DNA from: Candidatus Nanosynbacter lyticus
Lineage (GTDB): Bacteria > Patescibacteriota > Saccharimonadia > Saccharimonadales > Saccharimonadaceae
Direction: 5' to 3'
Length of the DNA: 32,000 nucleotides
Assembly: GCF_000803625.1 (NCBI RefSeq)
Contig: NZ_CP007496.1
Span: 240,001 to 272,000, forward strand
The translations under genes were made by a program, and so were the position numbers. The first letter of the stretch is position 1. The number at the start of each line of letters is the position of its first letter. Below, piece by piece: positions 3,464 to 6,767 of the stretch. The notes beneath the pieces are model-generated. The model was not told the origin of the DNA. It ran no database searches and saw only the letters and a program-made list of their open reading frames with translations.

Positions 3464-4432
3464 ATGGCAAAGCGCGACAATGATTTGGAGTTTAGTGTTA
3501 ATGCGGCGTTTGACGAAGCGCGGGCGGTTGTTGACAAAGTGCCGCTATATTTGGTCAATGGATCTTTGGGTGCTGGAAAAACCAGCGTCCTTGAATTCTT
3601 ATTGCAACAAAGTGACTATAAAGGCTCACGGGTAATTGAAAATGAGTATGCTAATGAAAATATCGACGGCTATCGGCTGGAGGGATTGGCGGAGATGGTG
3701 ACGACGTTGGCTGGCGATTGCGTCTGCTGCTCGTCGAAACACGCATTGACGCGGATGCTGCTGGATTTTTGCCGCAATTCCCCGGCGCCAGTGTTTATCG
3801 AAGCGACGGGTGTGGCGCGAACGATGAGCTTAGTTGAGAAACTGATAAATGCACAAATCTTCAATAAGTATGAGCTGATGCAGAGTTTTTACGTAATTGA
3901 CGCTTACGAGATTTTACACGGGATTGAGCCGGCGCACGAGGTTGAATTACAGGCGGCGGACGTGATTTTGGTGACCAAGGAGGATTTACTAAATAACAAT
4001 GAACGAGCTGAATACGGCATAAAACTCTCCGCCCTGCCCTACGCCAAGGTGCTGAGCGCGCCGCACGGTCGGTTTGACCTAAGTAAATTAACCACGCCGT
4101 CGGGGCTGCTAGCGTTTTTTGACACGTATGACGGCGAGCTGGTCGTGCCGGACAATCCGACGTATGCGGTGCTGGATATTTCTGGTATGAAAATTGCTGC
4201 GGCGACTCTGGAAAAAATTTGGCCGGAACTTTTTGACACTTATAAACTTAGGCGGATGAAAGGCTGTTTTATTGACGATAATGGTGTGCGACATCATTTG
4301 GAGGCAACGAAAAATCAGATTCAAATAGCTAATTCTGCGGCGGAAGAGCCAGCAAAAATTGTGCTAATTGGTGAACGTGCGGACGAAATTACGCGTGAAG
4401 TTTTGTCTGCGCAATTGATGATGTTTGAATAA
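3464..4432 (+). CDS. COG0523 (CobW/YjiA/ZigA-type) G3E GTPase, putative metallochaperone
   Basis: P-loop NGSLGAGKTSVL and the CxCC metal motif GDCVCCSS. I moved the start to M79 of track ORF 3230..4432, because the upstream part overlaps pth antisense and a TATAAT box lies 6 nt upstream of ATG 3464. Confidence 0.8.
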   Translation: MAKRDNDLEFSVNAAFDEARAVVDKVPLYLVNGSLGAGKTSVLEFLLQQSDYKGSRVIENEYANENIDGYRLEGLAEMVTTLAGDCVCCSSKHALTRMLLDFCRNSPAPVFIEATGVARTMSLVEKLINAQIFNKYELMQSFYVIDAYEILHGIEPAHEVELQAADVILVTKEDLLNNNERAEYGIKLSALPYAKVLSAPHGRFDLSKLTTPSGLLAFFDTYDGELVVPDNPTYAVLDISGMKIAAATLEKIWPELFDTYKLRRMKGCFIDDNGVRHHLEATKNQIQIANSAAEEPAKIVLIGERADEITREVLSAQLMMFE

Positions 4433-4445
4433 AAGTTCGCTTTCG
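4432..4445. repeat. Direct repeat, left copy (aaagttcgctttcg); 13/14 match to 5091-5104
   Basis: On the minus strand this is CGAAAGCGAACUUU, which supplies G12-A14 and the 3' strand of hammerhead stem III. Confidence 0.6.
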
Positions 4446-4489
4446 TCGTTTCCGACTCATCAGCATAGACACGCATCTATGGAGCAAAC
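4435..4489 (-). ncRNA. Hammerhead self-cleaving ribozyme motif, type III topology
   Basis: Minus strand reads GUUUGCU-C / CAUAGA-UGCGUG-UCUAUG / CUGAUGA / GUCG-GAAA-CGAC / GAA / AGCGAAC. All invariant core nucleotides are present, stems I and II are closed hairpins, and stem III is 7 bp and open. Predicted cleavage is 3' of C4482. Confidence 0.8.
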
Positions 4490-4491
4490 AC

Positions 4492-4505
4492 GACAAGTGA
4501 GAGAA
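4492..4505. repeat. Inverted repeat, left arm (gacaagtgagagaa); pairs with 5076-5090
   Basis: The reverse complement of 5076-5090 (ttctcttcacttgtc) is gacaagtgaagagaa. That gives a 14/15 match with a single 1-nt bulge. Confidence 0.6.
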
Positions 4506-4553
4506 TCTGACGGAGAGTCTACAGACTCGCCATGTTTGCGATGTTATTGCCTG

Positions 4554-4943
4554 CTACTCCTGGTTGTTGGAGAAGTAGACGACAATGCAAGGGTCGGTGG
4601 TAGCTACCCACGGGTTGGATTCTGTGTAGCTGAATTCAACGTCACGAACCTTCTCCTCAAGGCTTTGGAGCTCTTTAAGGAGCTCCTTGCGGCACTCAGA
4701 ATTGTTTGCGACTGCTGAGGTGATTAGAAGGTCATGGTCATAGATACAGATCTCGTCTGGAAGCTTACCTTTCATAAGGTATTCATTGATTGCGGCTTTC
4801 CTGACTTCCTCGCAGAACTCAGAGATCCCCTCCTCGAAGAAGCGGGAGACCTCATTTTTTCTGAGTTCCTCCATCCTCTTCTCTGTTTCCTTGAGGTTGG
4901 CAGCCCTCTTTGCCTGGACCTCGGGGGTAATGAATGTAGGCAT
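4554..4943 (-). CDS. Hypothetical protein, 129 aa (orphan, island-encoded)
   Basis: It is the longest ORF in the island and is preceded by GGGGAGAGAG about 7 nt upstream of the ATG. It has no motif I recognise. Its codon choice is rich in GAG, AAG, CTC and TTC, unlike the neighbouring genes. Confidence 0.5.
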   Translation of the reverse strand: MPTFITPEVQAKRAANLKETEKRMEELRKNEVSRFFEEGISEFCEEVRKAAINEYLMKGKLPDEICIYDHDLLITSAVANNSECRKELLKELQSLEEKVRDVEFSYTESNPWVATTDPCIVVYFSNNQE

Positions 4944-5075
4944 TGCAGTACTCTCTCCCCATCTGGGCGAACGCCCGTGTTGGAAACACTGATCAACGCC
5001 CGGATGGCATAGATCGAAGATGAGGTTTCGGGATACTTCTTAAAATATCGCAAAATCTCACCTTCGTCTTATAGG

Positions 5076-5090
5076 TTCTCTTCACTTGTC
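5076..5090. repeat. Inverted repeat, right arm (ttctcttcacttgtc)
   Basis: Complementary to 4492-4505. It directly abuts the right direct repeat at 5091-5104. Confidence 0.6.
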
Positions 5091-5104
5091 AAAGTACGCT
5101 TTCG
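5091..5104. repeat. Direct repeat, right copy (aaagtacgctttcg)
   Basis: 13/14 identical to 4432-4445. On the minus strand it reads CGAAAGCGUACUUU and lies in the leader of the island transcript. Confidence 0.6.
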
Positions 5105-5146
5105 GACAAGGAATAAATCTCAACTTGTCAACAAAAGCTGTATTCA

Positions 5147-5175
5147 TTTATATCACTAATAGGATAAAATGTCAA
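5147..5175 (-). promoter_or_regulatory. Sigma70-type promoter: TTGACA - 17 nt - TATAAA
   Basis: Minus strand reads TTGACA(5175-5170) ttttatcctattagtga TATAAA(5152-5147). It is the only clear -35/-10 promoter I found in the window. It would give a leader of about 200 nt before the 129-aa ORF. Confidence 0.5.
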
Positions 5176-5198
5176 TAGATTTTGTCAAGAATAAAGTA

Positions 5199-6767
5199 TC
5201 ATGTGTGTTTTTCAGCGTTTTTGGCCTGCTTGTAAGCTTTGGTGACTGGTGCCAAACCGCGCACAACGCGTTCGCGGTTGGCTTTTAATTGCTTTTCATC
5301 GCGGAAAGATAGTTTAATTGGCGTTCCCGCAAAATTGAAAGCTTCACGCAAAGTTCGCTCCAAATAGCGTTTATAGCTCCAGTGGACAAATTTCAGATTA
5401 CTGCCATATATAACAAACCACGGCGGAGCAACGTCAGTCTGGACAATGTAGCGCAGCTTCGGGTGTGAATTTTTCAGACCAGCTGGCGGATGTGCGGCGA
5501 TGGCTTTCTGTAAAATGTCGTTTAAGGCACGAGTTTTACATTCTTGGCGACGACGCTTATAGATATCAAGCGCTAGGTCGAATAACTTGGCGACATTCTG
5601 TCCAGTGACAGAAGAGGTAAATATTAACGGTGCGTACGGCGTGAACTTGAAGTTATAGCTGATTTGTGGGGCAATTTCATCATGAGTATAGGCGTCTTTG
5701 TCCTCAACGGAATCCCACTTGCTGACAACCAGAACAAGCCCCTTGCCCGCTTCGTCGATGATGCCAGCCAGCCGTTGATCTAATTGAACGTTCAATTCGT
5801 TAACATCCATCAAGAGAAAACAGACGTCGGCTTCGTTGATGGCCTGCATGGTGCGCAGGACCGAGAACTTTTCGATACCGGTCTCTTGCTTGCCCTGGCG
5901 GCGAATGCCAGCGGTGTCGAGTAGCTCGATGGTCTGGCCGTGGTAGCGGACTTGGACGCGGTTGACGTCGCGGGTGGTGCCAGCGACGTTGGCGACGATG
6001 GCTTGCTGCTTGCCTGCCAAGGTGTTGAACAGGTTGCTTTTGCCGACATTTGGCCGGCCGATGAGGGCAACGCGAATAATGTCGTCAGGCGCAGTTTCAG
6101 TGGCTGGCGGAATGAGATCGGCGATGTTGTCGAGCAGCTCGGAGATGCCGATGTTATGCTCGGTGGAAGTTTTGATGATGGTTTTAATGCCAAGTCGTTT
6201 GAATTCGTCAACGTGAAGAGATTCTTTCAGATCAGCTTTATTGGCGATTAAAATGACGGGCTTGCCGCTCTTTAAGGCTTTTTTGGCGAGTTGGCGGTCG
6301 GCGTCTGATGGATAGACGGTGGAGTCGACCATGACGAGAATGACGTCGGCAGCGGCAGAAGCATCGGCGATTTGGTCTTGGATGGTGGCTTCGAATTCGT
6401 CTTCGGCGGGTTTGAGGCCGGCGGTGTCGATGAGCCAGAATTCGGCGGTTGCACTCGCGCCACGCTCCTTCGCTGGAGTACTCTTTTCGCTCAAATCTCC
6501 ACTGGAGATTTGTTGCGAGCGTTCGGCTGAAACGCCCGCTTCTCGCGAACATTTCACGGCCTCCAGCGTAGGAGGTGTCGCGTCTGCCGCATTCTCATTA
6601 GGAGATGACGCGTGGCGTTTATATGAGACCTTACCAACAACGTTGTCGCGGGTGGTGCCGGCCTCACGGGCGACTATAGCTGTGCGAGAGCGTGTTAAAC
6701 GGTTAAACATCGAGCTTTTGCCGACGTTGGCTTGACCAATAATAGCGACAGTTGGTAATTTTGACAT
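5199..6767 (-). CDS. der: Ribosome-associated GTPase Der (EngA) carrying a ~56-aa in-frame insertion
   Basis: Two tandem GTPase domains are present. The first has GQANVGKSS, DTAG and NKAD. The second has GRPNVGKSN, DTAGIRR and SKWD. A KH-like C-terminus follows. The extra segment ASSPNENAAD...GASATAE lies between the switch I region (GTTRD) and FWLIDTAG. Confidence 0.9.
   Translation of the reverse strand: MSKLPTVAIIGQANVGKSSMFNRLTRSRTAIVAREAGTTRDNVVGKVSYKRHASSPNENAADATPPTLEAVKCSREAGVSAERSQQISSGDLSEKSTPAKERGASATAEFWLIDTAGLKPAEDEFEATIQDQIADASAAADVILVMVDSTVYPSDADRQLAKKALKSGKPVILIANKADLKESLHVDEFKRLGIKTIIKTSTEHNIGISELLDNIADLIPPATETAPDDIIRVALIGRPNVGKSNLFNTLAGKQQAIVANVAGTTRDVNRVQVRYHGQTIELLDTAGIRRQGKQETGIEKFSVLRTMQAINEADVCFLLMDVNELNVQLDQRLAGIIDEAGKGLVLVVSKWDSVEDKDAYTHDEIAPQISYNFKFTPYAPLIFTSSVTGQNVAKLFDLALDIYKRRRQECKTRALNDILQKAIAAHPPAGLKNSHPKLRYIVQTDVAPPWFVIYGSNLKFVHWSYKRYLERTLREAFNFAGTPIKLSFRDEKQLKANRERVVRGLAPVTKAYKQAKNAEKHT
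6471..6590 (+). repeat. GC-rich 120-bp repeat, copy A, inside der (antisense to der); full insert about 6444-6611
   Basis: The alignment to 30200-30319 is ungapped, with 100 of 120 positions identical by my hand count. It contains the hairpin AAATCTCC-ACT-GGAGATTT at 6493-6511. Confidence 0.75.

Follow-up and report, generated by a model that had tools for sequence, protein, structure and literature searches.

In bacteria, hammerhead ribozymes and RAGATH RNAs are associated with certain genes for reasons that are stated to be undetermined, with processing of the messenger RNA (mRNA) 3' untranslated region (3'UTR) as a suggested role (PMC6765202). In engineered reporters with a twister ribozyme in the 3'UTR, as summarized from Felletti et al. 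(2017) in PMC6765202, self-cleavage sets the mRNA's 3' end and influences expression. Type III hammerheads are also carried by viroid-like RNAs and retrozymes (PMC7761336). Here, we describe a locus in a 32,000-nucleotide stretch of the Candidatus Nanosynbacter lyticus genome (contig NZ_CP007496.1, positions 240,001 to 272,000; "the window," numbered from its first letter), in which a RAGATH-10 RNA (Rfam RF03147) and a hammerhead flank a small gene of unknown function, as in other twister- and hammerhead-associated genes. The locus is probably a chromosomal, self-contained expression cassette of Saccharibacteria (TM7), running from promoter to hammerhead, clamped 5' to 3' by a long-range RNA helix, and holding a strain-variable open reading frame (ORF); a polymorphic, recombining expression slot is its best reading.

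Unlike the hammerhead and RAGATH associations known so far, the window gives a full transcription unit with a 5'-3' clamp, an alternative partner for hammerhead stem III, and a polymorphic slot in Saccharibacteria, and the known gene association is now resolved into a clamped, ribozyme-terminated, polymorphic expression cassette. Like the engineered ribozymes, its hammerhead lies in the 3'UTR and is predicted to define the mRNA 3' end; unlike them, it is natural, has helices of its own that could protect the new 3' end, and is not accompanied by a terminator. As in viroid-like RNAs and retrozymes, stem III of its type III hammerhead continues into a long helix, but the cassette is DNA encoded, promoter driven, and protein coding, with a single ribozyme and no unit-length repeats or circles found among the loci compared, and the helix partner is the 5' leader of the same linear mRNA. 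The structured RAGATH-10 RNA in the 5'UTR, beside the Shine-Dalgarno sequence and competing with an upstream hairpin, recalls the glmS ribozyme and riboswitch leaders, although the self-cleaving element is at the 3' end and not in the leader as in glmS. Like integron cassettes and hot-spot islands, unrelated small ORFs alternate in a fixed slot and form short arrays; unlike in integrons, each cassette has its own promoter, no integrase or attC-type site was seen in the loci read, and the boundaries are sequences of the RNA frame. RAGATH motifs are reportedly products of the Weinberg et al. searches of 2015 and 2017, and the main text of the 2017 paper does not mention RAGATH. Our literature search found no paper linking hammerheads with Saccharibacteria or the candidate phyla radiation and nothing on RAGATH-10 itself.

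Architecture and limits of the cassette

The cassette lies between two convergent genes, der (5199-6767, minus strand) and a gene for a CobW-like GTPase (plus strand, ending at 4432). All of its features are on the minus strand and run from 5192 to 4420 in the order promoter, 5'-terminal hairpin, 5' arm of the long-range helix, second hairpin, and RAGATH-10, followed by the 129-aa ORF, the 3'UTR, the 3' arm of the long-range helix, and the type III hammerhead. They are given below with the evidence behind each; MFE denotes the minimum free energy structure.

4420-5192, minus strand: conserved cassette block, promoter to hammerhead plus about 15 nt (same limits across about 50 loci)
5147-5175, minus strand: sigma-70-type promoter (sequence inspection; kept in nearly all loci)
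5098-5138, minus strand: 5'-terminal leader hairpin 1 (pairing, covariation, RNAfold MFE)
5091-5104, minus strand: 5' copy of a 14-mer, CGAAAGCGUACUUU, comprising the 3' strand of hairpin 1, then GCGYAC, then a YUU linker
5074-5090, minus strand: 5' arm of the long-range helix, constant GACAAG plus a variable "zip code" (UGA-A-GAGAACC in the window) (alignment, MFE)
5013-5067, minus strand: leader hairpin 2, outer stem GAAGGUGAG/CUCAUCUUC (RNAfold MFE, inner-stem covariation)
4950-5029, minus strand: RAGATH-10 RNA (Rfam RF03147; 77.9 bits against a gathering score of 41.2, full length, 1-82)
4554-4943, minus strand: ORF of 129 aa, hypervariable family of unknown function (ORF listing, homologues)
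4532-4539, minus strand: 3'UTR segment X, GCAAACAU, complementary to the stem III 5' strand (repeat search, covariation)
4515-4528, minus strand: small 3'UTR hairpin GAGUC-UGUA-GACUC (in MFE)
4492-4507, minus strand: 3' arm of the long-range helix, GAUUCUC-UCACUUGUC (alignment, MFE)
4435-4491, minus strand: type III hammerhead (Rfam RF00008, stem pairing, MFE)
4432-4445, minus strand: 3' copy of the 14-mer, CGAAAGCGAACUUU, comprising the hammerhead GAAA core, the stem III 3' strand, and 3 nt
5350-5359, minus strand: AGCGAACUUU, a 10-mer within the coding sequence of der that recurs as the 3' end of the hammerhead (AGCGAACTTT)

The promoter is a near-perfect sigma-70 promoter, with a -35 box TTGACA (5175->5170), a 17-nt spacer, and a TG-extended -10 box TATAAA (5152->5147), and transcription is predicted to start near 5141. 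A promoter scan gave a second, overlapping promoter, TTGACA-16-TATCCT, at 5188->5161. At the other end, a scan of 4300-5300 found no terminator-like site, and the hammerhead ends 2 nt from the stop codon of the convergent gene; the last 3 nt of the 3' 14-mer copy reach this stop codon (TAA 4430-4432, plus strand), and the 3' edge of the block overlaps it together with the final codons of the cobW-like gene.

Seventeen genome loci and 36 metagenome loci (numbered with the prefix L) were compared, and about 50 cassettes of this kind were found in Saccharibacteria genomes and metagenomes. All but one of the genome loci are labelled Saccharibacteria or Nanosynbacter/Minimicrobia, the other being a 1.7-kb contig binned as Atopobium sp. 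RAGATH-10, ORF, and hammerhead stand in the same order in 15 of the 17 genome loci (among DNA reaching both ends) and in each of 8 other loci in which both RNAs were searched for (L055, the second L043 cassette, and 6 loci from metagenomes). Of the two departures, L009 has no Rfam hammerhead match because its core is a CCGAUGAG variant, and L010 has a decayed ORF and no RAGATH-10. The window block (5192->4419) is 97.8% identical to that of L001 over 775 nt of local alignment, although the L001 block sits in a different context, between an M1 aminopeptidase gene (called pepN) and an rnhB-yraN fusion. A preliminary description of this DNA had taken the unit to be 659 nt long, delimited by the 14-mer. 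Homology between loci, however, does not stop at the 5' copy but goes on upstream for about 88 nt, through the other strand of hairpin 1 and the promoter, so the unit is the promoter-to-hammerhead block of about 760 to 775 bp.

A long-range helix between the leader and the 3'UTR

A helix some 16 bp long joins the 5' leader to the 3'UTR. Within it, the minus-strand segments 5090->5076 and 4505->4492 form 9 bp, a 1-nt bulge, and 5 bp, and the helix stops 2 nt short of hammerhead stem III. This pairing, proposed in the preliminary description as a link from the leader to the ribozyme region, holds up. In the MFE of the 712-nt minus-strand transcript (RNAfold; z of -5.47), the long-range helix forms together with the leader hairpin, and the hammerhead is folded correctly. 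The leader CGAAAGCGYAC-YUU-GACAAG and its partner CUUGUC were found in about 50 homologous cassettes, and the helix is present in all of the approximately 50 recognized by leader and hammerhead patterns, at -19 to -24 kcal/mol. In an alignment of 35 sequences, the 14 tested pairs are 96 to 99.6% paired, and two of them change in a compensatory manner (AU in 20 sequences and GC in 11; CG in 21 and UA in 12).

The strongest evidence for the helix comes from the sequences of cassettes with other ORFs, where the constant GACAAG/CUUGUC is kept while the zip codes wholly differ yet stay complementary. Across cassettes whose ORFs are unrelated, the helix persists in spite of five different zip codes, three of which come from these cassettes: the first cassette of L037 has GACAAGCAGAUGA/UCAUCUGCUUGUC with CAGAUGA/UCAUCUG, L055 has CAG-UU-GAGAAUA/UAUUCUC-CUG, and the second cassette of L066 has GGUAGUCGU/ACGACUGCC, 14 bp including one U-G. 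Since these L037 and L066 cassettes end in intrinsic terminators where the others have a hammerhead, the clamp belongs to the frame in general and does not depend on the ribozyme. Among the exceptions to Watson-Crick pairing are many G-U pairs on the minus strand, and the bulges are conserved; together with the sense orientation of every recognized cassette, this argues for pairing in RNA and not for terminal inverted repeats or inversion sites in DNA.

Hammerhead, segment X, and a model for 3'-end formation

The hammerhead matches RF00008 at 4489->4435 (38.1 bits, local E of 1.8e-6, model positions 1-54), and its homologues score 28 to 41 bits. Its stems are III GUUUGC/GCGAAC, I CAUAGA/UCUAUG, and II GUCG-GAAA-CGAC, the last followed by GAAA; the CUGAUGA core (CUGAUGAG), CGAAA, and CUC as the NUH triplet are all present. 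Stems I and II are closed by loops and stem III is open, and the three helices are 98 to 100% paired across the 35 sequences, in which the core is invariant except for a U4->C change in 3 distinct sequences. From these features, the RNA is predicted to cleave itself 3' of C4482. Each cassette has a single hammerhead, and no twister or other second ribozyme turned up when the hot-spot loci were scanned with Rfam; in agreement with the preliminary description, the genomic copy would yield only a 3'-processed linear RNA.

The first conserved element after the variable ORF is segment X (GCRAACAU, 4539->4532). In the 8-bp helix that it can form with the stem III 5' strand (X:X'), pairing reaches 95.3%, and pair 78-131 varies between AU (19 sequences) and GC (14 sequences). 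The small hairpin between X and the long-range helix is 84.6% paired in this register, while other variants form a longer stem there.

How might such a message obtain its 3' end? We propose the following course of folding, cleavage, and stabilization in vivo. The near-consensus promoter would drive one mRNA in which the conserved noncoding frame surrounds the variable ORF, and the long-range helix would close the whole message immediately before the hammerhead. By cleaving after C4482, the hammerhead would stand in for a terminator and detach the message from the read-through RNA, which is antisense to the convergent gene. The new 3' end, a 2',3'-cyclic phosphate, would be held beside the 5' hairpin by the long-range helix, and the freed stem III 5' strand, GUGUUUGC, would be captured by GCRAACAU, leaving a 2-nt UC>p overhang. 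Capture by X would block religation, both ends would be shielded from exonucleases, and RAGATH-10 and the upstream hairpin 2 would set ribosome access to the Shine-Dalgarno sequence. The locus would then be a complete natural transcription unit with a ribozyme in the place of the terminator and a helix that survives complete sequence change, from which predictions follow on 3'-end formation, mRNA protection, and control of a ribozyme by competing helices.

Variable ORFs, contexts, and arrays

The same frame holds unrelated ORF families: the 129-aa family with a relative of 38% identity, a 133- to 145-aa family, a 251-aa ORF, another 145-aa ORF, and a 92-aa ORF with many hydrophobic residues that may encode a membrane protein. 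Two loci of one metagenome-assembled genome (L002 and L013) have the same flanks and ORFs that are only 38% identical. Short contigs that reach past the cassette carry host-gene flanks, and the many contigs of 0.5 to 1.5 kb are best explained as assembly breaks at the strain-variable ORF. At the DNA level, the frame could provide two homology arms, a 5' arm of about 200 bp and a 3' arm of about 120 bp, through which strains would exchange ORFs and ORFs would also move among two or three chromosomal slots.

Three combinations of flanking genes were found (der/cobW, pepN/yraN, and der/yraN), and cassettes also occur in tandem arrays (L043, 1-2003; L066, 3760-5450). Two types of spacer separate the arrayed cassettes. 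One, in L043, is a fragment of about 150 bp from the der 3' end that starts exactly at AGCGAACTTT, directly after the hammerhead; the other, in L043 and L066, is a fragment of about 100 bp from the yraN 3' end that ends at CATTTTTGRCAA, where the next cassette starts. Part of the 14-mer is therefore a recombination junction in one array, by way of the hammerhead copy and the in-gene site in der and not by way of the leader copy. In L009 and L014, the last codons of yraN, about 15 nt past the hammerhead, read MFE* in place of VLE* and so match those of the cobW-like gene (window 4420-4434); because these last codons are exchanged between contexts, the recombining block reaches into the stop codon of the neighboring gene.

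The gap between cobW and der is itself a variable hot spot. A search for other copies, which the preliminary description had proposed, turned up the tandem arrays but neither free circles nor a clean empty site: in none of the five cobW-like loci examined do der and cobW meet at a clean empty junction. What these loci contain is another cassette, small ORFs, an Rce1-like gene plus a relic hammerhead, or, in TM7x, a different neighbor. In L056/L057, a gene for an Rce1-like (CPBP) membrane protease in the der-cobW gap is followed by a hammerhead (about 3515-3545 in plus-strand numbering, the feature being on the minus strand) with an intact core, a degenerate stem III, and neither leader nor RAGATH-10, probably a relic. 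In L054 (Nanosynbacter lyticus, CP124549, a record that we take to be strain TM7x), no hammerhead cassette lies downstream of the cobW-like gene; a 95-aa gene there is closed by an ordinary terminator of hairpin-plus-U type, and the neighbor is a gene other than der. A 7-bp direct repeat, GAATAAA, flanks the block in the window (4427-4433 and 5189-5195) and not in the other loci; it may be a target-site duplication or due to chance, and a duplication would imply an empty site in which only about 4 nt separate the stop codons of der and the cobW-like gene.

Could the cassettes instead be mobile DNA modules, recombining at short conserved sites as an integron-like array with no recognized integrase? 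Two candidates for such sites are (A)GCGAACTTT at the 3' end of the hammerhead, in which most of the 14-mer is contained, and the left-edge 12-mer CATTTTTGRCAA. Near-identical blocks in different contexts, the three flank combinations, the exchanged MFE*/VLE* codons, and the variable cobW-der gap all fit such modules, as do the array junctions, at which the der fragment begins exactly at a 10-mer native to der and the following cassette begins at CATTTTTGRCAA, the crossover points differing slightly; the CATTTTTGRCAA pair, moreover, lies 846 to 851 bp apart in most pepN/yraN loci. We nevertheless regard this explanation as rather unlikely, though the strongest of the alternatives. In the loci read, no recombinase was seen in or beside the cassettes, the leader copy of the 14-mer is never a junction, no clean empty site was found, and the GAATAAA flanks may be due to chance. 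Natural transformation with homologous or microhomology recombination through the frame could explain everything, and exchange of this kind would be the simplest mechanism at the DNA level. The mobile-module explanation is compatible with the RNA-level one.

At a more general level, Saccharibacteria might carry a modular, ribozyme-bounded cassette system, in which a fixed RNA frame (with hammerhead or terminator) holds exchangeable ORFs and recombines at frame sequences that include GCGAACTTT and CATTTTTGRCAA; we put this forward only tentatively. If it is true, the bacterial association of hammerheads with genes gains a role in mRNA-end engineering and cassette mobility. Array read-through RNA cut at two hammerheads would have 5'-OH and 2',3'-cyclic phosphate ends and thus could be ligated into circles.

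The direct repeat and its alternative readings

The 14-mer AAAGTWCGCTTTCG has exactly two copies in the window, at 4432-4445 and 5091-5104, identical at 13 of 14 positions and 659 bp apart, as described before; the 3' copy does comprise the hammerhead GAAA core and the stem III 3' strand. Taken on a single sequence, the statistics of the repeats are weak: a 13/14 direct repeat arose in 2 of 100 dinucleotide shuffles of the element, and at least two window matches to the 14-mer pattern in 8 of 100. We accept the repeats as real because they are conserved across homologous cassettes, the 5' copy as CGAAAGCG(C/U)AC(U/C)UU in about 50 of them. The conserved part of the direct repeat is only 10 to 11 nt (CGAAAGCG-N-AC), and the TTT after the hammerhead copy is not conserved, being AAT in most loci.

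The 5' copy takes part in leader hairpin 1, whose layout is GCUUUUG-UU-GAC...GUC-CGAAAGC. The outer stem pairs GCUUUUG (5138->5132) with CGAAAGC (5104->5098), and the inner GAC/GUC stem encloses a variable interior. Its 10 tested pairs are 98.3% paired, pair 7-16 changes from GC to AU, and the inner stem covaries (GACAAG/CUUGUC against GACGGAAC/GUUUUGUC). The hairpin resembles the hammerhead in layout, a hairpin followed by CGAAAGCGNAC, but on its 5' side only about 5 of 12 positions agree with CUGAUGAG; that it is a degenerate second hammerhead is speculation.

The GCGYAC segment of the leader, strictly conserved and lying 3 nt from the long-range helix opposite GUUYGC, could be a cis-regulator that sequesters the stem III 5' strand, either as an off-switch for the hammerhead or by capturing the strand after cleavage. 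Five of its six positions are pairable in all sequences. The central position, however, is a Y.U mismatch in 35 of 35 sequences with no compensatory change; forcing the pairing costs about 3 kcal/mol because the leader hairpin is opened; and segment X offers an alternative partner with 8 bp and covariation. We therefore find it unlikely that GCGYAC acts in this way. The preliminary description had extended stem III into the leader by 7 bp, a proposal that is not supported, given the absence of covariation and the competing leader hairpin. Of its suggestion of a cis-regulator, a cis-acting role of the leader RNA is the best reading, whereas sequestration of stem III by GCGYAC is unlikely.

The preliminary description had favored a viroid- or retrozyme-like element of 659 nt, circular or in tandem repeats, of which the locus would hold one unit and a further 14 nt, with the 14-mer as its junction. 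The spacing of the two 14-mer copies, the long helix abutting stem III as in viroid-like RNAs, a predicted processed mRNA (about 5141->4482) that is also about 660 nt long, and the existence of tandem arrays (L043 and L066) can all be read in this way. Such an element is nevertheless very improbable. Conservation continues past the 5' copy through the promoter and the hairpin partner strand; with a single hammerhead per cassette and no CUGAUGA core at the 5' copy, there is no ribozyme at each junction; the array repeat includes the promoter and a host-gene fragment, so it is not 659 nt; and the TTT part of the repeat is not conserved. Free circles were also sought among the shortest contigs with the ORF, which proved to be linear: in those of 713 and 773 bp (L059 and L060), the two ends do not overlap, and the 773-bp contig carries host-gene flank at its 3' end. 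No relative was found among the 2.9 M viral contigs of IMG/VR, and a viral origin of the cassette was rejected on the same result.

Least credible of all is that the inverted repeats are DNA sites, of an inverton that flips the ORF segment against a fixed promoter or as terminal inverted repeats of an element like a miniature inverted-repeat transposable element, since, although a 16-bp inverted repeat with constant GACAAG/CTTGTC does flank the variable module with the promoter outside it, the bulges are conserved, G-U pairs are tolerated on one strand, the arms (5090-5074 and 4507-4492) lie about 100 nt inside the block of 5192-4420 and are thus not terminal, and every recognized cassette (about 50, from one-strand patterns in ORF-oriented loci, the inverted arrangement not having been searched for directly) is in the sense orientation.

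Several points weigh against the clamped, ribozyme-terminated cassette that we prefer. The hammerhead score of 38.1 bits is below the Rfam gathering score of 48.5, and the core variant CCGAUGAG (U4->C relative to CUGAUGAG) occurs in L003/L022, L009, and L033. This change is expected to impair hammerhead cleavage, and cassettes that carry it would serve as natural controls. A leader/3' duplex (18x18) as stable as that of this single sequence arose in 5 of 60 shuffles. Covariation in the main alignment reflects mostly two haplotypes, and part of it could be linkage by descent; this concern is greatest for X:X', whose two sites are only about 50 nt apart, and L011 and L039 are exceptions. The long-range helix and X:X' together form a pseudoknot, which RNAfold cannot score, and their coexistence is hypothetical. 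Cleavage, transcription start, and RNA ends are predictions throughout, and the model does not account for the near identity of CGAAAGCG-N-AC in leader and hammerhead, beyond a possible common origin.

A possible leader switch, encoded protein, and neighboring genes

The 3' tail of RAGATH-10, GGAGAGAG, is the Shine-Dalgarno sequence of the ORF. The CUCAUCUUC strand of hairpin 2 is the 5' strand of RAGATH-10 helix P1, whose 3' strand runs into the Shine-Dalgarno sequence, and hairpin 2 could thus act as an anti-P1 structure. Its inner stem covaries (GAUA..UAUC against GGUA..UACC). The predicted competition between hairpin 2 and P1 suggests a translation switch. A match to MIR781 at hairpin 2 was dismissed as spurious.

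The 129-aa protein has 69 homologues, and those with an organism name belong to Candidatus Nanosynbacter or Candidatus Minimicrobia (Saccharibacteria). It matched nothing in Pfam, PHROGs, PADLOC, or the sequences of the PDB. Its AlphaFold2 model (predicted local distance difference test score of 77.6) has a 50-residue N-terminal helix followed by a small alpha/beta domain, for which Foldseek gave no match at E<=0.001. With its near-consensus promoter, the strain-variable slot seems made for high expression; it lies in the reduced genomes of oral Saccharibacteria, and the small proteins encoded in it may matter for the epibiotic lifestyle or for phage defense. Some cassette-bearing genomes have names like those of cultured Nanosynbacter strains (TM7-008, NZ_CP157587, with locus L006, and TM7-087, with locus L005). 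Experiments on the cassette look feasible, since Saccharibacteria have reportedly been genetically manipulated (PMC10633639).

The neighboring Der/EngA protein (5199-6767) has an insertion of about 45 residues rich in Ala, Ser, and Glu at about residues 52-100, in or next to its first GTPase domain; it is 522 aa long in the window, compared to 476 to 478 aa in L010, L011, and L055.

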